A stretch of DNA of 64,000 nt, taken from positions 45,260,001-45,324,000 of the forward strand of contig OZ287748.1 of the NCBI GenBank assembly GCA_965649765.1, written 5' to 3'. Source of the DNA: Bispira polyomma (taxonomy: Eukaryota). Shown here in pieces: positions 10,741 through 46,597 of the stretch; position 1 is the first letter of the stretch; each line of letters opens with the position of its first letter. Both the position numbers and the translations under genes were made by a program. The notes beneath the pieces are model-generated. The model made no database searches. It saw nothing but the letters and a program-made list of their open reading frames with translations, and was not told where the DNA came from.

Positions 10741-11341
10741 TGCATTATTCAAGTCAATTTATATAGATTTAAAGCTGGGTCTCAATTTGTAGTTTTAAAC
10801 ACCCAATTCAGTATCATGACCACAAATAATTAATATCAATATATTAACATTACTTAGACTTAGTTGAGACAAGGTGAGATTGCTGATGCAAATCGGGAGT
10901 CATATATCGGAAGCTGCATGCATGTGTACATAGACTTAGATGTTTGGAGCTGTTGTTAAGCCGGCATCCCACACATGAGACAAAATGCACGACAGCTTTG
11001 TGATCATTTGTCACCGATTTTCTCTATTGTTTGGGTGCAGTGGTCTGGGGATGGCGATTTTCGGCTTTCGCATGACAATGATAAGACAATTGTGGGTGAG
11101 ACATTAATGCCATTTTTTGTACAATATTGTCGGCTCATTGTCTCTTTCATGTCTTCCATTTGTTGCTTACATTCGCCCAATTCAATTGCTTTGGCGACAT
11201 TGAAGAAAATGACATTTTATCAAAATGACAGTCGATGACGTCAAAGATGATTTTGTCACCTCAAAGGGTTGGCATTGCATGGAATTTAAATATTAAATAA
11301 TTCTGCGCCATGGCATTCAAGTGGAGGCGATTACTGGAGAT

Positions 11342-11558
11342 AACAATGAGACAACAAAGAATCAACAAAGAGACAACAGAGAGACAACAAAGAGACAACA
11401 AAGAGACAACAAAGAGACAACAGAGAGACAACAAAGAGACAACAGAGAGACAACAAAGATACAACAAAGAGACAACAAAGAGACAACAGAGAGACAACAG
11501 AGAGACAACAGAGAGACAACAAAGAGACAACAAAGAGACAACAAAGAGACAACAGAGA
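11342..11558. repeat. 11-bp minisatellite (A[A/G]AGAGACAAC)n, about 19-20 units, probably inside a non-autonomous DNA element (about 10955-11640)
   Basis: Directly visible. It explains the five overlapping low-complexity ORFs at 11261-11638. Confidence 0.95.
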
Positions 11559-12126
11559 AATATTAAAAGGAAATGAGGAGACACTGTCAATGACTTTTTT
11601 GTAATTACACAACATTCCATGTCACCTAGCCAATTCACCTTTGGGCCTTTACTAAATCAGGCATCATGTGTTTACCTCTACCAAAGGAGAATCTGTTTTT
11701 ATCGATGTCTCTCCTTATATGTCACCAAAGACAATTAAACTATAAAAAAACTACTGAACAAATTGACATGATATTTGATGGAGGGATCGGCCAAAGGGAG
11801 GAATCCAGTAAGTTGTGATATAGATCCGGTATAATGATCTACTACCAAAAGATAGATTCTAAGCCCTCCCAGAGTCTACCAAGGTATAAAAGTTAAGGGG
11901 GTCTATTCTAGGGGGTGGGAGTAAATCAGGGGTAATCAAAAATTCATTTTAATCTGCCCTGGGGGTGATGTATGGGTTAAATTTAAATCAAATTGAAAAT
12001 TGTTAGGGGTAACTTTAACTGGGGGGTTCGCAGATCCAGTATTTTCTTCCTCAATGACACAGAGACCATTAAACCGAAAACAACTAGACCTAGCGCATCG
12101 GAGAACCGATGCATATTTGTATCCAC

Positions 12127-13153
12127 CAAAAAGACAAAGCACCCGGAGTAGCAAGCACTCTAGCTAGCACCCCAGCAAGAAGCCTATGATTTCCTAAAGG
12201 GCATTTATGCTAAAGCCTTAAATGGCACAAGTGGGTTTCACATTGTAAACCTGTGGGACCAATAATAAGTCTGTGATAGGCACTTTAAAGTTTGGTGTAC
12301 CCATTTGACCTTGCACAAGGGATGCAAGGTTAAATGTGACCAAAAGATTAGCATCCTAAGATTTCCTGTAGGTTGGTTTCACATCCCAAACCTCTACGAC
12401 CATGATTTTCTTAGGTTGGTTTGATATTCCAAATCTCTAGGACCAATAAGCACTTTTAAATTTGACTATCCTTAAGTTGGTGTCACATCTCAAAACTGTA
12501 GGACCAATAATAAGCGAGTTATAAGCACTTTTACATTTGGCTATCCTTGTTTGACCTTGAAGGAGGGGTCCAAGGTCAAACCTGACCACATTAGAAGACT
12601 CTCAGCCCATGATTTCCTATAGGTTGGTTTCACATCTCAAAGCTGTAGGACCAATAATAAGCGAGTTCTAAGCACTTTTAAGTTTAACTCCCCACGTCTG
12701 ACCTTGAAGGAGGGGCCCAAGGTCAAACCTTACCACATCAGAAGATTCCCAGCCCATGATTTCCTATAGGTTGGCTTCACATGCCAAATCTGTAGGACCA
12801 ATAATAAGGGAGATATAGGCACTTTTAAAGTCTGCTATGTGGGGTACTTTGGCACTCTGTGGATGACCTTAAATGAACTCTGTGGATGACCTTGAATGAA
12901 GAGCTTCAAAGTCAAATGTCTGCATGCTTGTAGAGGACATATATATCTGTTATACATATCACCTATGAAGAGATTCAACCTTCTAGTTACGAGAACAAGC
13001 CAGAAGAAAAAGATAGATAATTTTCAAAGAAATGCCCATGGCGGCCATCTTGTTTTTCAGAATGAGGCTAATTTCAGAAAATCTTTCTGCAGCAGCGGCG
13101 GCAGCATAGCCAACGCTAAACCAAAGTATCCACCTCAACGTTGGATACAATAA
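12127..13153 (+). mobile_element. Helentron-associated interspersed element (HINE/DINE-1/pearl-like) with internal 147-bp tandem repeats
   Basis: GGACCAATAATAAG recurs at 12501, 12648 and 12795 (period 147), with truncated or diverged units at 12256 and 12440. Each full unit has a TGACCTTG...CAAGGTCA palindrome. (GCG/GCA)n microsatellite near 13090. 3' hairpin GTATCCA-N9-TGGATAC followed by AATAA. Confidence 0.75.
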
Positions 13154-14920
13154 TCGAGAAAAACATATACATATACAAAGTTTAAAACTGAAAGGAAGTT
13201 ACACCAAAAACCCTTCCTATTAAAGGTTTAGCATTTAACACCTAAAGATTTTTTTCGAATAACTGTAACTCTGTTTTGAAGTCAAGTATTCTACTGTGAG
13301 ATGAATGACATAGGTGGTGGTAGTATATTTAAATTTTTTGTTACTTCTAAACCTTTTTTTCCAGTTTGTCTGAAGAAGTTCTTTGGTGTTTCTGCAAAGC
13401 ACTCTTCTCCCAGACCTTTTGTACATGTTTGTTCTCTTTTGGAGTGGTTCAGCTCTGTTTTGAAGTCAAGTATTCTACTGTGAAAGTATTAAGGGTTTCT
13501 GTAGAGGACAAGTTTACAGTTTAATAGGCCCAGCCACTTATATAACAAAACTTTTTTCTAATAGGCCATGGAAGTCAAAGAACTCATAAAAACAAGCCAC
13601 ATATAAAACTTCTGTGGACTAATATGTATAGTCAAGTATATATCAAACTGACATTTCTGAATACGTGTTACTTAAATTAGCAATATTGCTAATAGAACTG
13701 GATAGTTCCTCATATAATGGAAGCCTTCTTCCATACTAATTTACCATGCTTAATTTATTATATTTCTGTAGCTCTTACAATATTATAAGTGAAACATTAC
13801 CATAGTTATCAGATGTTTGTCTAAAATACTGGCTTCTTGTAAAAAATTCAAAATAATATGTATCACTTTAATTACCCTTTTGTGACAAGTTTTGGTGTCA
13901 AATTGACACCTTTTTTACAGTTAACAAGCATTTTTAAACAAGCATACCATATTTTAATATAGGTAATTATCATAGTATGTCTATCAAAAACCAACAAAAT
14001 CATATTCTAAACATATTGAATTGGATAAATTAAAGAACGAAATACTTGTTTACTCACAAAAGCTATAAACTATTTTCTACATTGAAAATATATAAATTAA
14101 AACTATATTTCTAAAACTTAAAAAAAAAAAAATATTTTCTTATTATCTTTTTAAGCACACACCCGAAGCCAATTTAGAATAGAAGTGTATATATATATTA
14201 TTTGTGATTGGTGTGGTTAGTAGAAAATGAACAACAAAAGAACCTGACCTAAACATCTGATAATTTGTCTGTTTCCATATGACCGTCACTTTTATTGGCA
14301 CTGTTTATGTGCTGGTCTCTCCTTGCCAAACAAGCACGTTTATATTAAGGTTATTTATTTCCCTTTTTTAAAAAACTTAAATGATATTCAAAACAAGACA
14401 ACAAACAAAACAACTCACGTGAATCGTGAGATTTCATAAATTTGAATATTCACGAATTCATAAAAGAAATATTCAAAATATGTATGTATGTTTTAAGCAG
14501 GATGACATTAGTGTGGACTTTTGTCACGTGGTTCCAATGTACAATACATTAACCATAGATCACAATGCTTCACCTACCAGGACCTAGTTGTATACTTAAG
14601 CTCATGTTAAATCTCGAATATAACATAAGAATAGAGATTTCCCAATTATTGGGAATAACTTGGACATGTTACCATTCATTTTATCAGAGCTTTCAGTGAG
14701 GAAGTCGAATATATAACCAGATTTTAGATATCTCTGTGGTGCACAAATATTAAAAACAAAATTACTGTTATTTTTCTTTTTACTATAATTGTATATATAT
14801 ATATATATAAACTTGTCATATGTTTTTCTGTCTAAATAAAATCAAGTGTAGTTATGACAACAATCTCGTAGCAATAATTAATAAGTATGTTAAAGTAACA
14901 GTCAGAAATAAATTACAATA

Positions 14921-15578
14921 TGCATTCTCCTCTAAATATAATTATAAAGCAAATTTTTATCCGCCGATGTCAGTCGACGTCGGCCGATATAAACATTTTA
15001 CAAGTTCTTATTTGATATAACCAAGCGCTTCCTTACAGCATATTTGCAATAGATCAGATCAGACATCGGACAACGACAGTTGGGCCAACAGATTTTATCC
15101 GTCAGGGAGCGAAAAAAATCAGGAGGACTGTTCGATTTTTGAAACAAAAATGGCTACAAAAACACGGTCATAGTGTAGTGCAGACCGTTTTCGGGGTATA
15201 GATGGTAGAAACACAAGTATATGCTGGAAGATACTTCTCATTGCCTGGATCTAACTGGTACAGGTAATTTTTACTACAATAGGTCTAGTTTCCATTCTAT
15301 ATATACTCAATATTCGTCGGGTGTTGATTTTAAAAATAGCATGAGAAATCTTATTTTATTGTGATTACTGTGCTTATTTCCCCAACAAAATCCGTTGAGT
15401 AAGAGCTGAGATATTTAAGCTTATAGCTAGGTACCCCTTGAAACTTCCCCTTTTACTGTGAATGGCACGTCACAGCAACGTCATAATGAAGCACTTGGTA
15501 GAATTGTGTAATGAACGAAAAAAAAAAAAAAAATCGGCCGATGCCGGCCCCGGTAAAAACATGCTGAAAGGAAGTGTA
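14921..15578. mobile_element. Probable non-autonomous DNA element with degenerate subterminal inverted repeats
   Basis: GTCGACGTCGGCCGAT (14973-14988) versus ATCGGCCGATGCCGGC (15533-15548). CpG-rich relative to flanks. Shares an approximately 70-bp module with 30141-30208. Confidence 0.4.
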
Positions 15579-16784
15579 GGCTATCATGCCTCCTAAAGCT
15601 ACATGATCTACCATTAACAAATCATAGCAGTACCACCCTCCTACTGGGTTGTCCAACTTTAACATACACGTACTGAGAAAGTATGTCTACCAAAACACAT
15701 CAGATAGTTAAGTCAGACACTTTTCCTTAACTTCACGATGCCAATAACAGTCAATAAGTGCAAAATACAATAACCTTTAATGTTTCAATAATGGAGTTAT
15801 TAAAGTATTATTGGGAAAATTAAACAAAGTGGTCATTCCTTGTCCAATACTAGTATTAAAAATTTTATTATAGAATTCAATCAACAAGAAAAATCAGTTA
15901 AATTGAAGAATTAGCTTATCGAAAGTTTTATTTCTAATTTCAATGGATTGAAAATCAAAAACAAAACAATAGGTGGTAGGACAAACAGCCTGTTTCATTC
16001 TAAAGGTCAAAGCTATGAAAACCATTGATTAGAAATAGACAGGTAGCTCTTATTGAATCTGTTAAATTGGATTATTGTTTGTTTGGAAAAATATGTCCCA
16101 CATATAGTTTTATGGTTCCTACTGTTTTGCATGTCAGACCACCTTTGTCATTTGTGTCCAAAACAATCTAACCATTTACCCTAGACCTCAAGGTAAGCAC
16201 CACCACCTCAATAAGTCTATCAATACACTTTTAACATGTGTGAACTATTTAACATTGGCAAAACCATTCCCTGAAACAGTTTTATTGGCCATATATTTTG
16301 AGTCATGCAAGTTGACAGTTACAGCTGATTCCAATGAGTCTTAATAAAACAATTCCACAAAAATGAAATTGGCAGGATGGAACCAGCTGCAGAAACTCTT
16401 TGACAGATAAATCTTAATAAACCAATTAGAGACTCAATATGATTAACATATGGTGGTCCCCTTTCCTCCCATTGTCTAAAATCGAAGGTCTCAAATATGT
16501 ATATATATAAGGAGCTAGTTATCCCATACCCAGTTGTGGAGATTCTTTTGCCTAGGCACTACTCGGCTGTTCAGTAAATTCTTGTAAAGAATAAAGTCTT
16601 AAGATTAGTCTTAGGATTAGTTTAACATTTAGTTTCTGGATATAAAACTTGTTTTGGTAAGTAAAAACTTAAAACAGCTATACTTGTATAAATCTAATTT
16701 AAGTTCTTTAATTAAACTGAAAAGAAAATACTTGCAAAATTTGTTGTTGTTTTTGACTAAAAGTAAATTCACATCTATTTAAAC

Positions 16785-17733
16785 ATGTTTCAGGAAATAA
16801 TTTCATTACCAGATTTCGTATCTGCTGACATTAAGTTGAGATTGCCAACTGGGGGGGGGGGGGGGGGGGGGCTTACAAGATCTCTTCCTGTTAAGTACTT
16901 GCTCTTTTATTCAGATTTGGCAATCCAAAAGTTTCAGTTGGGAAATCTACTGGATCCACAAGGTAGTGTAGATAATGATAACATAGTGACCTTTGAATAT
17001 CCTGCACAAATTTTGGATAGGAATGGCCTCCACAAAGATATGTTACGTTTTACAGCTGAATCTTTGACTGTTGTGTTTCACCTTATTTCTGGGCAATATC
17101 CTAGGAGTGAGTAACCTGACCTGGTTGATATAGTAAGTGTATGTACACATGTATGCCGCTTGCGAAGTGCAATTTATGGCCCCCTCTGACGCCCCCCTCT
17201 CCCCCCACGCCGCCCCCCCCTCCCCTTACTATTGAATTATCACCTTAAACAGTGCGATTTTATATTATCATCCGATTTTTTCGGTCCTGGAGCGAAAAGT
17301 TCGCATTCGGAAGCCGCAAATCGTGAGTCGCAATTCGCAGTCTGATACATGTGAACAAATAAACAAAATATATGAGGAGAGAAAAAATTGCAGCCGCAAA
17401 TCGGACGTCTGATGTCGCAAGCCGCTTACATGTGTACATACATTTTGGGCTGCCATTTATATGCAGTTCACAACAGGGATAACATTTTTGAATTTGACCA
17501 CTTGGGTGAACAGAGTTACCAGGTCTCAATGGGCAAATATTGTCTACATCCTGTCCTACCCGTATGGGGAAAACCCATACTACGGCGCATATTATGTCAT
17601 ACCATGGGTCATGGAAACCATTTTCAAACAGTTTTACGTAGATATTTACGAGTTGTCTCTACCACAGATTTTATGGGAATGGGCTGTGTCGTCTTCATAT
17701 CAGCTCAACTTTGGCCTTTCTGATGATGAATGA
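16785..17733 (+). pseudogene. About 214-codon unknown gene split by a MITE, one internal stop
   Basis: Excising 17137-17443 joins ORF 16785 to ORF 17461 in frame: ...GQYPRSE*PDLVDIVIWAAIYMQFTTG...NFGLSDDE*. ATG start. Poly-G tract at about 16850-16871. Confidence 0.5.
17137..17443 (-). mobile_element. PIF/Harbinger (Tourist-like) MITE, family H1, copy 1
   Basis: About 27-bp TIR GTGTATGTACACATGTA(T/A)GC(C/G)GCTTGCGA. Reverse-complement match to 36126-36429 along its length. TAA on the left flank. Confidence 0.9.
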
Positions 17734-18258
17734 AAAAAACAATGAGATATTACGGCAATTTCGCAGGGAATTTATGAGTCAATATTTTGATAACCTAAAA
17801 ATTAGGAACACGTCCCAGAGGTGTTACCCAGTACGATGTTCTTCTTGTGAGTATGAGTACCTTCAGACACCAACAATAAGGGATGCCAGAATAGGAGTAC
17901 AGCTGTGCTGTTACAACAGGTCACTGTATATGATTTACTACATTCCTGTACCCCCTGTATCTGTCAATTTTGACAAGACCTGGGTTGGGGTGAAGGTTGT
18001 TATAAGGCCATAGATACAGCTGTGCTGTTACAACAGGTCACTGTATATGATTTGCTACATTCCTGTCCCCACTGTATCTGCCAATTTTGACCATGCCTGG
18101 GTTGGGGTGAAGGTTGTTATAAGGCCATAGATGCAGTGGAGTTGGCACAAACCAAATTTGATTTTCCTGGGAGATTTACTGAAGCGACTTTTGCGAGCTC
18201 TGATCCTATGGATTGCTTGATGCCCCAGATTTTTAAACTAGATCTCCCAATTTTGTAA
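17723..18258 (+). pseudogene. Unknown Cys-containing gene remnant with an internal 117-bp duplication and a frameshift
   Basis: MMNEKNNEILRQFRREFMSQYFDNL...CYPVRCSSCEYEY, continuing in another frame as ...VYDLLHSCPHCICQF*PCLGWGEGCYKAIDAVELAQTKFDFPGRF...LPIL*. The start overlaps the stop of the upstream gene. Confidence 0.4.
17898..18131. repeat. 117-bp tandem duplication
   Basis: TACAGCTGTGCTGTTACAACAGGTCAC...ATAAGGCCATAGA at 17898 and 18015, with only a few substitutions. Confidence 0.95.
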
Positions 18259-18846
18259 TGGGCTTAGTAGCCAATTAATCCCCTTATCATTTTTACTATA
18301 TTGGTATTGTCAACGAGTTGTAATATCAAACTTTTGTTTTTCCAATTAAAATTAAAATAAATTCTTGCAGCCTTCAAATTCGATAGAGAAAGTGTAAATA
18401 AAATGTAGCCTTAAAACTTTCAAGAAAAAGCCAATAATGAAAGAATCTCCACTTAAAAATAAAAATAACCATCAGAATTTTGGTTACTTTTAAATCAAAT
18501 ATTGTATGTGAATTGTGAAAACAGAAAATGGAACCAGCAAATAATAATGCCAGGAAATAAGACTGTGTTTATGCAACTTATGAGCTTTGTGTTTGACAGA
18601 TAGTACATGGAAAGACTGAATATTGATCCGGGATATTGTCATGAATTTATTCATGGTCATAATTCTGTTTACGAACTACACAAAATTGATGGTGCTCAAT
18701 ACGGAACGATACGATTGTTTTAAGTTTTTGTGACCCCAGGAACTGATATCAGCAAATTTATGACCGAGATCCAAGATTATGATCCAGAGAATGCTGAGAC
18801 AAGGCATTGACTTTATAACAATTCTTTAGTTTGTCATTGTAGAACT

Positions 18847-19245
18847 GTGGAGAATTATAACAACATAACCTCCAATAATAGCCCCACTGAATTGACTCAT
18901 GCTGCCAATCTGACACCACATATATGGAGGCCTTGGGTTCAAAGGACTACTCATGCGGAACCTGGTGTTCCAACTGGATCCACAAGTGTCTTAAGCCAAC
19001 AACAGGGAGCCAATAACAACAATACGTCACATCAGAGACACCACCCGTACTTTAGTGACTCACTCTCTAACAGCAGGCTGTGTGCTATCAGCCAAGTGTC
19101 TCCTCCACAGTATGCTCGATGCAATGCTCTTGCAACTACTACAGATGTATTCGTAATATTGCCAGAGGGAGCAGTGTTGTTCGACCCTCAGAGGACACCT
19201 AAGGTTACAATACCGATACTTTGTTTCTTGCCAATCGATACCTAA
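18847..19245 (+). CDS. Hypothetical ORF or exon with WRPW and RHHPY motifs
   Basis: Longest ORF in the window (132 codons). No ATG start, but preceded by an acceptor-like TTGTCATTGTAG (ends 18842). WRPW at 18925-18936 in an N/S/T/Q-rich low-complexity context. Confidence 0.35.
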   Translation: MENYNNITSNNSPTELTHAANLTPHIWRPWVQRTTHAEPGVPTGSTSVLSQQQGANNNNTSHQRHHPYFSDSLSNSRLCAISQVSPPQYARCNALATTTDVFVILPEGAVLFDPQRTPKVTIPILCFLPIDT

Positions 19246-21454
19246 TCACATCTACAGTGTACCAATCTCATGTTGTGTACAAGCTAGTGAGGCAGTATCT
19301 TGTCAGTCGAAAAATAGTGCAGAATTAAAATGACATTTTAAACTGATTGGTTAATAATTCAATGCCTTATGTATATCAGATTGCAGCGAGGAATAATTGA
19401 AAAAAAATTTTTTTTAAAGAATATTCTTTATGTCAATTTAAAATGTATCATGCCTGATGTTTAAAAATGAAAAATGTGACACCATTTTATTAATAGTCGA
19501 TTTTAATAACTATGTCATGTCACTTATTATGTCTTAATAATACCACTATATATTTACGTATGTGTGTAAACTGGGAAGTGCATATCAAGGGATATTATTA
19601 TTTGTTTTTTCTCATGTATGGTCTACTCAAATTGAATGTATCCAAGGTGTTTGTTATGATATTTAATTCAAAGAGTGACAAGTGTAATGTCAGCTGACCT
19701 TAAAGCAGTTGTACTGATCCACTGTCTTTATTTTGGACCTAGATAAAAATAATTCTCGGTTAGTTCATTTGAACCTGGATAAAAAGGATTATGAGCTAGT
19801 TGATGTTATGACTCAAACAATTGTTTAAATTGGACAATTTAAGATTACAAAAAAAAAAATTACTACTGGTTAGAGATTAAAAAAGCAGGTTATGATCTGA
19901 AAACAACTGCCGGATTTATTAATGTTCTAGTTGTGTATTCACGGGTAAAAGGTTTACATGTTTATTACTGTATGTTTGTTTATATTACTTGAAAGGAGTA
20001 CTGTATGAGGCTAGACCTCCGAGTATAATGACGTATTCAAGTATTGTTATAATATGTATAATGATATGTACCAGTATTGTTTAAAAATGTATTAACTGTA
20101 CAGGGAACTAAGAGTTTTGTGATTTCTTTTATTTTTTGAAGTGTGGGGTCCAAACTTGGAAAAGCCCAAAGAAATTATTAATAACAAAATTACTGTTATT
20201 TTCTTTTTACTAAAATTGTCTTTATGACAGCTCTGTTAATAGATACAAGTATCTGCTTCTCTGAACAATACCCATCCAAGGTTTATTATGTTTCATCAGA
20301 GATTGTTTCAGAAATTGTTTTATTTAAATTAAGTCTCTATGACATATCCTTAAGGGATATCTTTGTGGATATTGAAAAAGCAATAGAAGTATCTTTCGAT
20401 AGATAACTTGACTAAACCGCTCTCTGTTATATGCCATTAATAATTCAAGTATGAAATGGAACTATGTCTGGTGGGCTCAAAATTGTCGAGAATGTTACAA
20501 GTCCAAATATTATAAGTTTCTAATAAAAGCCCCTGTACAACGGACAATATATCTCTATGTCCAGATCTTGAAATGCAAGCATAAAACAGAAGAATATTGA
20601 TTCTCTCAGTATATATACGTTTGCAGCTTACAGCTGTGGCCAGTTCTGACATCAGCTTGATATAGATATTATAAACTGCCTTCAAAATACTTAGAATATT
20701 TTCTATCTTGTGGACTCAGTGATATTTTCAGCCTTTTTTAAATTATTGACTGGACACTTTGAAAGCCTGGCACATTTCAATAGATACAACAGTATATTTA
20801 TAATATTGATTACAGAAAGAAAGTATAATGATTTGGACATTAAAATATAGTAAATAACCTTTAACAATTAAAATAATGAAAACGTTATTGGAATTTATGG
20901 AATTTACAATTGTTTACTCATTACAATAAACATATATTTTAAGTTCATTGCTGACTTTTTTATTTAAATAACGTTTGTCCATCCTTCTCAAAAAGGGGTA
21001 GGGGTTTTATCCAATCAGCGTTTAGTCCTAGATTCCTAGCTAAAGTTGCGTTCATTGTTAGATCACCCCAACCCTATCTCGAACAGCAAATTTAATAAGC
21101 GGAAAGACAAATTACAGTACTTTACCGCCTACTATACCGCCAATATGTGAACGGGGCGTAAACTTGGCTCGCAACAAATTAAACTGAATTATCACATTTC
21201 CCGATAAAAGACTGTTATAATGATGCTGATTATTAATGCAGGTGTTGTTACCCATAATTACAAACCTTCTGGACGTACCATTTTACATTGCATTAAATTT
21301 TTAGTTAATGTACTCTAATACTAAATGTTTTAAATACATTCGAATGAAAACAAGTTTTTTTTTTGTATTTGTTTTGGCATATTATATATACAAATACACA
21401 CTATAAACATTACACCAAAGCTTTACAAAAGGACAAAGACAGACAAACTGAGGT

Positions 21455-21705
21455 TTTGAATTTGGATATTTAACGTCCACCCTAGTACCTTTTAGTAGGG
21501 TATATTGGGACGGGTAGTTGGAAACGCTGGAGGAAACACTGCATACAGTCGGTCAAGGTTCTGCAGAGAAACCAGCGGCCCACAGTAAGGAACTACCACC
21601 TTTCCCACATAGGCATCGACGGGATTCGAACTCACGCCGCCCAGAGGTGAGAGACCAGTGATTGTGAAGCGCAATGCTTGCTAACCACTAGGCCACCGCG
21701 GCCCC
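21455..21705 (-). mobile_element. Young tRNA-derived SINE, family A, copy 1
   Basis: A-box TGGCCTAGTGG, B-box GTTCGAATCC, (AAATTC)-type tail. Imperfect TSD GACAAACTGAGGT / GACAAACGAAGGT. Closely similar to three other copies. Confidence 0.92.
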
Positions 21706-22269
21706 GACAAACGAAGGTAAAACAGTACTACAGATAATACTATGACAACAGTTACTGTGGCCAAATTATGCAGAACTTTAACAAACCATAGTCATATGAA
21801 TGACAGGTGAAAAAAAAAAAAGTTAAAAAAAAATAAAAGAACATTCAAGGCAGTAAAGAACACTTACACAGAAAATTCCCTTTTTTCAAAAACCACAGAC
21901 AAAATTAATTGAAAGGTATACATTACATAAATGTTCATGAACCACTGTAGACAACGTGCATGTTTCTGTCAACATCAAAAGAACTAGATGGATTTTGTAA
22001 GTCTTTTTTTCACCCTACTAGCAGAAACATCAAAGGCATAGTAGATACATTTCATTTTTCATCATGTCATATACAAAAAAAGCCTGTCTAGAGATAAGAT
22101 ACTAGACTCCCATTTTTCATGAAATTAGTAATGAATTGCCCCCCATTCTTACTGAAAGTGTATATGTGTACACAAACAGGTAATAAAGTAGAAGATTAGG
22201 ATTTCAATTTTGTCAGGGGCCTACATTACATAAAGGCTTCCTAACCTTGTGTTGGAGGGCACATAGCAG

Positions 22270-31166: not shown

Positions 31167-31567
31167 TGCTATTTCGTGGAAACAAAAGCATTATCAGAGA
31201 AGATTATATTATTCAGCTGCGCATTTAAATCAATAGAAAGTGTCCAGATTTCATAATTTTAAATTGTGTATCGGAAATTAGAGTCTTATGCAAGGCTATG
31301 GGTCGAGTTTCTTTTAAAAAAGGTAAAATTTGGGACAGAGTTATGAACTGATTCAGCTTGTGAAAGGAAGTGCATATTTTTGAAGATTTTTACACAAAAG
31401 AGAATATAAATACTCTATATCTTTACCGTTATGAAAGAATGTTAAGCTGAAAAATATCTAGTATATGTAGTTGAAATGCTGCCCAACTCAGGATTTGTCC
31501 AACTCTTGGAATGTAAGATAATCATTAATATATGTTATGTAAAGTAGTTTATCCTTCATTCACTGTA

Positions 31568-31826
31568 GGGGGCCGCGGTGGCCAGTGGTTAGCAAGCAGT
31601 GCACTTCACAATCACTGGTCTCTCACCTCTGGGATTGGCTGGCGTGGGTTCGACTCTCGTTGATGCCTATGTGGGAGAAGTGGTAGTTCCTTACTGTGGG
31701 CCGCCGGTTTCAGTGTAGAACCTTGATCAACTGTGTACAGTGTTTCATCCAGCGTTCCAACTACCCATCCCAATATAACCTACTAAAAGGTACTAGAGTG
31801 GACGTTAAATATCCAAATTCAAATTC
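31568..31826 (+). mobile_element. Young tRNA-derived SINE, family A, copy 2
   Basis: GGGGGCCGCGGTGGCCAGTGGTTAG head, GGTTCGACTC B-box, ends GGACGTTAAATATCCAAATTCAAATTC. Confidence 0.92.
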
Positions 31827-35799: not shown

Positions 35800-36052
35800 T
35801 TGAATTGAATTTGGATATTTAACATCCACTCTAGTACCTGTTTAGGTTATACTGGGACGGGCAGTTTGAAACGCTGGAAGAAACACTGCATACAGTTGAT
35901 CAAGGTTCTACACTGAAACCAGCGGCCCACAGTAAGGAACTACCACTTTTTCCACACAGGCATTGACAGGATTCGAACTCACGCCGCCCAGAGGTGAGAG
36001 ACCAGTGATAGTGAAGCGCAATGCTTGCTAACCACTAGGCCACCGCAGTCCC
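35800..36052 (-). mobile_element. Young tRNA-derived SINE, family A, copy 3
   Basis: Full-length match to 21455-21705. 13-bp TSD CCTGCTAGACAAA (35787-35799) / CCTGCTAGATAAA (36054-36066). Confidence 0.93.
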
Positions 36053-36125
36053 ACCTGCTAGATAAAAGCAAAGACTTTATTTTATACTGAAAGATAATAT
36101 GCTAGTAAGCAGGTACCACATCTTA

Positions 36126-36429
36126 GTGTATGTACACATGTAAGCGGCTTCCGACATCAGACGTCCGATTTGCGGCTGTGATTTTTTGTCTCCTCATATA
36201 TTTTGTTAATTTGTTCACATATGTCAGACTGCGAATTTCGACGCACGATCTGCGGCTTCCGAATGCAAACTTTTCGCTCCAGGACTGAAAAAATCGGATG
36301 AGAATATAAAATCGCACTGTTTAAGGTGATAATTCAATAGTAAGGGGGGGGGGGGCGTGGGGGGGGAGGGGGGCGTCGGAGGGGAGAAGTAAATTGCAAT
36401 TCGCAAGCCGCATACATGTGTACATACAC
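36126..36429 (+). mobile_element. PIF/Harbinger MITE, family H1, copy 2
   Basis: TIR GTGTATGTACACATGTA.GCGGCTT.CGA at both ends. Perfect TTA TSD (36123-36125 / 36430-36432). Internal G-run tract. Confidence 0.92.
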
Positions 36430-37469
36430 TTACAGGAAAACAATTCAGTTTAGTTGTGTACCCTGAATGTACAATGAACATTTTCTGTAATATGTATCTA
36501 ATTACACCCTCATACAGGTGTGTCTTTATATATACATTGTAGTACTACACTGCTGGAAATTATAGAGTTCTACAACTCATTTTACCATAACAGAATGGGA
36601 CATTCTAAAATGACATCTTCACTTACCGGGTGGGTCAAAGAAATCTTGCCATTAACCTTGACCTTGAGAAGCAAGAGTTCATCATTTTTCTAAAGCATCA
36701 CAGGGTTACCTTATAATCAGTGTGAAGGAATTGATCAAATGTTTCTGACAACAGAGAGGCGACCAGTAGCCTTTCTTTAGGGCTTATCTCTATTGTCAGA
36801 AAGTTTTATTTGTTTTGCAAACTAATTATATCAAACTAATTTATCAAATTACAATAGCACCTCTCTTATCCCAACTTCTATTATGAACTAATATTGATTT
36901 GGATATGACTCATTTCCACTCTCCCTTGTCAAATTTCCTATTGTTTTACACAAAAATGCCTCTAATATTTGATGAAACTTCTATCAAATCATTATATCAT
37001 TCTCCAATGGTGCTCTTTTTCTGAAATGCATAATCCTACAACATAGCTTGAATAACACGTTCACATGTTGGTCAAAAATGTTATCTCACCAATATGAGCC
37101 GAGTGATATTAGCACGAGTCGGCCTTCTAATCATAATGGTCATACGAGTACAATATGCTAAATTAACTATACCTAAACTTTCCACAAAAAGCATTGCCCG
37201 TTTACATAATTCCAACAGTCGAACCTTTCTTGTGTCAATTTTTTATTTTTAAATCGAAACATTGACTGGCTAAATGAGTTTGAACAGAGTGTTTGTGTTT
37301 GGTCTTTAAATGTGTTGAATGTAAGAATTTACTATAGTTTATACATGAAAGTGACAAAAATCTGATAATTGTTTTTTTTTATAATAGAGTTTAACCCTAT
37401 AAAACCTAAGCCTGATTTTGTTTAGGACAGTTTTTTTAATTAGTTCCCGAGTCTTTCTGACAAATATGA

Positions 37470-46097: not shown

Positions 46098-46597
46098 GGG
46101 GAATGGCCCTGGTGGCCTAGGGGTTAGAAATACCTGCTTCAACAAACTGGGTTTGAATCCCATTTTGTTCCTTTATATGTGAAAGTTTGTCAGGTACTTG
46201 TCGTAGGTCAGTTGTTTCCATTGGCTTCAGCACTGGCTTCAGCACTGGTTTCTTCCACCTTTAAGGGGGCCGCGGTGGCCTAGTGGTTAGCAAGCATTGA
46301 GCTTCACAATCACTGGTCTTTCACCTCTAGGCGGAGTGAGTTCGAATCCTGTCAATGCCTATGTGGGAAAGGTGGTAGTTCCTTACTGTGGGCCGCTGGC
46401 TTCAGTGCAGAACCTTGACCGACTGTATGCAGTGTTTCCTCCAGCGTTTCCAACTACCCGCCCAATATAACCTAAACAGGTACTAAAGTGCACGTTAAAT
46501 ATCCTAATTCAAAATTCCTCCACCTTTAAAATCTGACTGTCGTTATCCAACCTATCAGCTGTTGAAAGTGACCTAAAACCCGAATAAATTCAAATTT
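46098..46597 (+). mobile_element. Meta-like SINE family B, interrupted by a family A SINE
   Basis: The family B sequence ...GGTTTCTTCCACCTTTAA|AATCTGACTGTCG...GCTGTTGAAAGTGAC is split at the TSD. Confidence 0.85.
46265..46518 (+). mobile_element. Young tRNA-derived SINE, family A, copy 4 (nested)
   Basis: Perfect 11-bp TSD TCCACCTTTAA (46254-46264 / 46519-46529). Intact A-box and B-box (GTTCGAATCC). Confidence 0.95.

Follow-up and report, generated by a model that had tools for sequence, protein, structure and literature searches.

Decayed 3' part of an envelope-bearing Ty3/Gypsy retroelement with accessory genes, one of predicted BTB fold, in Bispira polyomma

Features of the locus

A 64,000-bp stretch of the Bispira polyomma genome (the window; GenBank contig OZ287748.1, C1:45,260,001-45,324,000) was analysed, and copies of its features were searched for in the 1.035-Gb, 75-contig genome. 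The plus-strand sequence at ~14,745-20,975 is almost certainly the decayed 3' part of a Ty3/Gypsy long terminal repeat (LTR) retroelement of the kind that bears an F-type env gene, with two miniature inverted-repeat transposable elements (MITEs) inside it. From left to right it consists of a spacer, three accessory genes (AB, C, and D), a 3' non-coding region, and a 3' LTR. No gag, pol, or env was found in the window or in the 10 kb upstream.

The first accessory gene, AB (16785..18258, plus strand), was broken by stops, frameshifts, a MITE, and a 117-bp tandem duplication at 17898-18131. It was followed on the same strand by C (18547..18810; ~80-110 aa), which had two stops in the window copy, and by D (~18835..19330; ~150-200 aa), which was frameshifted near its end. 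The 3' non-coding region (19331..20175, plus strand) was 71-78% identical to five copies and had no match in other subfamilies. The damaged 3' LTR (20176..20975, plus strand) was 85% identical to the 1,226-bp LTR of locus L034, and was missing positions 549-833 (which include a TATA-like motif) and approximately the last 85-100 bases. In place of a clear polypurine tract, the bases directly before the LTR (20130-20175) contained a tract weakly enriched in purines and a short hairpin, which reads AAGTGTG...CACACTT in sister copies.

The spacer (14745..16784, plus strand) lies between AB and the position of env, which is absent here. It matched loci L035, L038, and L131 at 66-83% and contained no conserved reading frame, and in the copy at C4:19.19 Mb the same sequence was located ~1.4 kb downstream of an env C-terminal remnant. 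MITE 1 (14950..15580, ends approximate, no strand assigned) was absent from copy L035 and was covered by contigs at hundreds- to thousand-fold the depth of its flanks. MITE 2, inside AB (17133..17446, no strand assigned), also had high contig depth, an empty site in L038, and an inverted copy at window 36127-36433. Depth, empty sites, and further copies thus confirmed both MITEs as later high-copy insertions, as a preliminary description of this DNA had supposed. The window copy is inactive, with gag, pol, and env gone, all three accessory genes broken, and the LTR deleted in part, and is itself an ordinary fossil. Given that it was only 70-87% identical to its nearest copies, the insertion is old. 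Contigs of three sequencing runs (from one study, which may include the source sample) spanned all 30 bins of the stretch, which is therefore not an assembly artefact.

The preliminary description had reported unusually open reading frames across 7.6 kb. All of its quoted peptides were present in the six-frame translation, and the openness held against local shuffles (stop fraction 0.040 vs 0.051±0.005 at 13.2-15.6 kb, and 0.037 vs 0.045±0.003 at 15.6-20.85 kb) but not against the rest of the window, where the mean best-frame stop fraction was 0.039 (370 tiles) compared to 0.037 in the region (48 tiles). Open stretches of ≥ 100 aa numbered six in the 2.63 kb at ~16.8-19.3 kb, some of them overlapping one another or extending into a MITE, vs 14 in the remaining 61.4 kb. 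The coding signal is limited to about 16.8-19.3 kb. Within this interval, homology supported the plus-strand frames 16785-17733 and 17723-18258, which together form the single gene AB, as well as 18547-18810 and 18811-19330. The other proposed frames had no match in other subfamilies: minus-strand 16330-16500 and 15900-16000 fall in the spacer, 19720-19830 in the 3' non-coding region, and 20224-20850, frameshifted against 13 of 13 LTR copies, in the LTR. An LTR-encoded frame was also rejected on its own account, with stops in all frames of all copies inspected and no match in other subfamilies. Since the minus-strand frames had no cross-subfamily match and carried frameshifts in copies (two and four frameshifting indels in the two copies covering most of the 16.3-kb frame), there is no divergent gene arrangement around 16600-16785.

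Relatives in the genome and the accessory cassette

A DNA search with 17,450-20,900 returned 75 matches (40 of 45 candidates scored), the majority spanning 20,200-20,900 alone, and a search with 15,600-17,130 returned 13. L034 carried two copies of the right-end sequence (1,226 bp, 95.3% identical) and, flanking them, an ATAT duplication; the right end of the window element was identified as an LTR because L034 carries this flanking pair with its target duplication. Window-type LTRs were also found as solo copies with target duplications. These duplications were 4 bp long in L008, L012, L020, and L034, and 5 bp in L010. The LTRs of the window subfamily end in TATTA...TAATA, those of sister subfamilies in TGTTA...TAACA, and the window subfamily thereby departs from the TG...CA ends that are typical of, rather than defining for, Ty3/Gypsy elements. 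Both LTR ends were altered complementarily in the window subfamily (L008, L010, L012, L014, L015, L020, and L034), and integration still yielded duplications of 4-5 bp.

Downstream of its 5' LTR, L034 contained a TGG-starting, primer-site-like motif and then a 317-codon frame matching Pfam Retrotrans_gag (1e-6); it also retained an env remnant (independent E-value, iE, 1.6e-18), after which the DNA continued into window-matching sequence. A genome search with the L034 Gag gave 87 matches. Fuller relatives, whose Gag was 61-64% identical, encode protease, reverse transcriptase (RT), RNase H, integrase, and chromodomain in that order, and one relative has an 889-aa env of baculovirus-F type (Baculo_F, 1.4e-10). 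Of pol, window-subfamily copies retained fragments only, and env remnants were present at four of the eight loci examined outside the window. The order in the relatives is accordingly LTR-gag-pol(chromodomain)-env(baculovirus-F type)-accessory genes-LTR. An env remnant near 16.5 kb in the window was considered and rejected, as the env-profile extension was of low quality and the window had no env match. At C11:31.935-31.975 Mb (L110, L037-L039), at least four family members were nested, one sitting in another's LTR, together with a tyrosine-recombinase element (weak Phage_integrase match, 0.001).

Profiles of the accessory genes were built without any window-subfamily row and searched against 327,956 residues. 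They matched the window on the plus strand in the order AB, C, D (best iE 2e-9, 4e-8, and 0.007): AB at 16908-17174 (9e-4), 17440-17661 (2e-9), and 17687-17920 (1e-5), C at 18613-18774 (4e-8), and D at 0.007 in the window and at 3e-8 in the sister copy L035. Accessory genes lay 3' of env in 8 of 12 gag+pol+env stretches (the profiles included some of these targets, and the nested C11 locus was not counted). In the C12 element the order is env-AB-C-D, and each of the three accessory genes has an open frame; unbroken AB frames occur at C12:3.78 Mb and C2:17.04 Mb, and in unbroken relatives AB is one frame of 306-325 aa. In the C3 lineage, C and D are accompanied by a further cysteine-rich gene, E.

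The accessory genes are common to four gag lineages. Between subfamilies, the proportion of synonymous differences (pS) was 0.63-0.92 at an amino-acid identity of 24-47% in 12 of 12 pairs, a contrast that protein-guided alignment favours; pS for gag was 0.80-0.88. The accessory genes were real genes, given that four gag lineages share them despite saturated synonymous sites. The LTR identity, the env-AB-C-D-LTR order in relatives, the homology of the window frames, and the long-term conservation at protein level are regarded as shown, with very little room for doubt.

Among 1.84 billion proteins, AB had seven unnamed relatives in other assemblies (best 2e-27). No Pfam, PHROG (0 of 9 proteins), or PDB sequence match was obtained for AB, C, or D, and a PDB sequence search with env, AB, D, and C gave no E under 0.1. 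Protein searches among candidates of near length found no match with AB of L038 (65 candidates), AB of C12 (212), or the D alignment (2,683). For the outside AB relative P0001, none of 47 pattern matches in metagenome contigs was confirmed, and the ESM Atlas gave no usable match. Membrane segments were absent from all nine accessory sequences, while the env positive control scored; the accessory proteins are therefore not a second fusogen of the MDG1 sORF2 kind.

Two rearrangements of the cassette were observed. AB was lost in three copies (L034:6100-6125, L035:5335-5350, L042:6045-6070) with an identical left breakpoint (window ~16652), a GTAAGT motif 6 bases beyond it, and differing right breakpoints; splicing was rejected as the origin, the junctions not being at splice sites. 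At L038:3600-6820, the AB-C-D region was tandemly duplicated (~80% identical) directly 3' of a gag fragment.

To the left of the element, 14,590-14,750 is a common repeat unrelated to it, and the AT-rich 13190-14575 is single-copy in the genome (its one match is itself), with no translated match, sub-threshold weak Pfam matches only, and a short internal direct repeat (~13268 and ~13455). An 11-bp tandem array (11293-11611) and a 147-bp repeat array (12228-12838) are part of a common repeat ending near 13150. A very high-copy short interspersed repeat of ~250 bp was present at 21455-21710, 31564-31823, 35805-36057, and 46266-46514.

Predicted folds and possible roles of the accessory proteins

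In unbroken relatives, AB is predicted to consist of a BTB/POZ fold, a helical extension, and a cysteine-rich tail. According to a single AlphaFold model, made for the unbroken C12 protein, residues 1-115 very probably adopt the BTB fold, with the extension reaching ~170. Residues 1-160 were modelled with a block pLDDT (predicted local distance difference test score) of mostly 77-90. Against 48,161 PDB chains, 48 of the 50 top rows were BTB-fold proteins (by title or family), the best at Z 9.1 (root-mean-square deviation, rmsd, 3.5; 95 residues aligned). Among Kelch-type BTBs, KLHL26 scored Z 8.4 and KBTBD2 8.1 (rmsd 4.9, 136 aligned), and vaccinia A55 scored 7.9 (rmsd 5.5, 137 aligned); alignments with cullin adaptors, A55 included, continued to ~residue 170, with an rmsd of 4-5.5. 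Half of the 50 top rows in BFVD (25) bore BTB/POZ or Kelch-like names. The cysteine cluster behind the BTB was conserved, in a pattern that by eye is not a C2H2 array. Among 28 host BTB stretches (of 30 loci), one matched the AB profile, at 5e-4. In the host genome, the coding sequence of the cullins is divided among short exons.

The C protein is acidic. D has a low-complexity N-terminal half and a folded C-terminal domain of ~90 aa that was well predicted; chains of eIF1 size from initiation complexes filled the top five rows for its model (Z 6.6-6.9, rmsd 2.4-3.1, 72-74 aligned), with a topoisomerase domain at Z 6.2, within 1 Z of these. With Foldseek E of 0.01-0.1, this weak eIF1/SUI1-like resemblance of the model is a lead only. 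Bacterial condensation-domain clusters in the ESM Atlas (0.91-0.94 for part of D) were not taken up. Gene E, which is absent from the window, was found at L126:5980-6384 (C3:20.17 Mb) and in sister copies; it encodes ~130 aa with 9% cysteine and had no Pfam or PHROG match. Profile comparisons of C with D, and of AB with E of the C3 lineage, showed no similarity. C and D, as well as D and E, are separated by 19-57 bases, gaps that would suit leaky scanning or reinitiation.

AB may have served as a Cullin-3-type ubiquitin-ligase adaptor directed against a host defence protein, a real possibility that falls somewhat short of probable. This role is suggested because BTB-Kelch proteins bind Cullin-3 via BTB and three-box, with phi-X-D/E as the cullin-binding motif, and catch substrates with a C-terminal domain (passages of PMC6484134). 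The predicted BTB and helical extension of AB would bind the cullin, and the cysteine-rich tail would bind zinc and do the substrate selection that a Kelch propeller does elsewhere; the host target would be degraded, or the ligase tied up as with vaccinia A55. We infer that C and D acted inside the cell as soluble helper proteins, translated from an RNA that was either spliced or started at an internal promoter; passages of PMC4402516 describe both kinds of 3' RNA for Oikopleura Tor elements. A search for RNA data sets, which covered three runs from one study, listed none. That D tuned start-site choice on a multi-gene RNA is improbable. A more far-reaching proposal, which we regard as doubtful, is that an invertebrate Ty3/Gypsy lineage became a "complex retrovirus" outside Retroviridae, with a captured Cullin-3 adaptor of BTB fold, fitted with a novel zinc-binding domain for substrates, and an eIF1-like helper in addition to its fusion envelope; AB would then destroy a host restriction or silencing factor, and D would help to translate the multi-gene 3' RNA.

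Taken as a whole, the reading of a dead Ty3/Gypsy 3' part with three formerly coding accessory genes, in which a BTB-fold AB may have been a Cullin-3-type adaptor, is in our judgement highly probable. Several findings weigh against it. The genome yielded no full-length copy bearing the LTR type of the window, and within subfamilies most dN/dS values were 0.6-0.95 and did not single out the coding frame, as in near-neutral decay. Four of the 12 gag+pol+env stretches had no accessory match, the C3/C6 lineage lacks AB, and the seven outside AB relatives are known as protein sequences. One of the four stretches has 100% identical LTRs, so the cassette is not needed in cis, as expected of trans-acting helpers. 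For AB itself, the mean pLDDT was 61.8 with the tail mostly under 50, the phi-X-D/E motif occurred in some rows only and was not clearly conserved by eye, and the Pfam BTB profile did not match. Foldseek with the AB model gave no match at E 0.001. HHalign against the 28 host BTB stretches aligned the same helix pair at a score within the shuffle range (15.6 vs 12.5±2.2, maximum 20.4, 60 block shuffles). Finally, the four best structural matches were ZBTB-type POZ domains, which we take to be transcription-factor domains and not cullin adaptors.

The last point bears on the main rival to a cullin adaptor, that AB of the same element was a BTB-zinc-finger-like transcription or chromatin regulator, either a trans-activator or a dominant-negative decoy of host ZBTB repressors. 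The top rows (Miz1/BCL6, BCL6, and NAC1 POZ domains, Z 8.5-9.1) and the conserved cysteine cluster agree with such a protein, as does the nuclear accessory protein sORF1 of Drosophila 412 (passages of PMC11952523). However, ZBTB and Kelch-type Z values overlap (8.4 for KLHL26, 8.1 for KBTBD2), the cullin-adaptor structures align furthest (to residues 153-196), the cysteines do not form a C2H2 array, and the C12 protein has no N-terminal segment, its matches starting near residue 30 of BCL6-type chains. We regard a regulator or decoy as unlikely, though a serious contender. The accessory genes could also be real while the BTB likeness is a chance product of a modest model, the folds and functions being something else; the non-significant profile-profile and Foldseek results, together with an AB alignment in which many of the 23 rows are fragments, would fit this. 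Chance likeness is nevertheless improbable: in a search without bias towards any fold, a single fold takes 48 of the 50 top rows over the length of a whole domain, residues 1-160 are mostly well modelled, and two libraries and two programs agree on BTB.

The preliminary description had favoured an endogenous DNA virus or Polinton cargo, to which DNA-virus genes recently inserted beside an LTR may be added. Its account of a decayed, virus-like element with small intronless genes, further copies, and MITE insertions stood, and small, tightly packed genes would suit a DNA virus; poxviruses and giant viruses often encode BTB proteins, and AB may have been captured from a DNA virus long ago. In several lineages, nevertheless, the genes are flanked by env on one side and the 3' LTR on the other. 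None of 28 window frames passed any Pfam cut-off, those for pPolB, a double-jelly-roll capsid, and a packaging ATPase included, none of nine proteins had a PHROG match, and no terminal inverted repeats surround the element among the 25 longest pairs. A DNA-virus identity, which we consider extremely improbable, is refuted for the element, and a DNA virus may at most have been the ultimate donor of AB.

Comparison with known systems

By gene content, the element agrees with the Ty3/Gypsy clade whose members carry both env and a chromodomain. Those with an F-type env, the "ancient errantiviruses", have been described in Cnidaria, Mollusca, and Annelida (Chary and Hayashi, eLife 2026, passages of PMC13524379). 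The shared features are the LTR-gag-pol-env order, integrase followed by chromodomain, the baculovirus-F-type env, and recent multi-copy insertions; here, in contrast, env is separated from the 3' LTR by two to three additional genes, and the window subfamily has TA...TA ends. The main text of that article had no occurrence of "accessory", "small orf", "extra orf", or "UTR", and its supplements may bear on this.

Extra genes are also captured by the Ty3/Gypsy elements of the Drosophila MDG1 group (sORF1/sORF2; passages of PMC11952523) and by those of bdelloids (ORF3 types; PMC5408684), and PMC8220671 and PMC5408684 describe other extra open reading frames (ORFs). The MDG1 and bdelloid ORFs, which encode fusogen-like proteins or enzymes, are located upstream of gag or take the place of env, whereas the genes here are additional to env and have no membrane segment. 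With vaccinia A55-type BTB-BACK-Kelch Cullin-3 adaptors (passages of PMC6484134), AB shares a predicted BTB fold with helical extension, encoding by a viral or virus-like element, and low identity to host BTBs; it differs in having a cysteine-rich tail in place of the Kelch propeller and in lying on a reverse-transcribing element, and its cullin binding is a proposal. BTB-fold proteins in viruses are a class known from poxviruses and giant viruses.

Complex retroviruses encode the cullin hijackers Vif, Vpr, and Vpx, and foamy viruses carry Tas/Bet between env and LTR. These are likewise small, non-structural genes at the 3' end and offer an analogy of role, rather than of sequence or fold, for countering host defence; the element here is Ty3/Gypsy, not Retroviridae. 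If AB recruits a cullin, retrotransposons would turn targeted degradation against host defence in the manner of complex retroviruses, the Vif/A55 strategy would extend to retrotransposons, and the substrate of AB would reveal what restricts such elements in an invertebrate, an unknown anti-transposon defence. Unbroken AB copies in the genome make binding directly testable.

A search of the open-licence literature showed no paper describing BTB-fold genes, or accessory genes downstream of env, in elements of this kind; annotations of the Repbase type may also be relevant here. Across animals, Gypsy elements with an envelope are known to carry three genes; in this genome several lineages keep two or three further genes behind env. 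The element class is already known; what appears new is the post-env cassette with its predicted BTB-fold gene.

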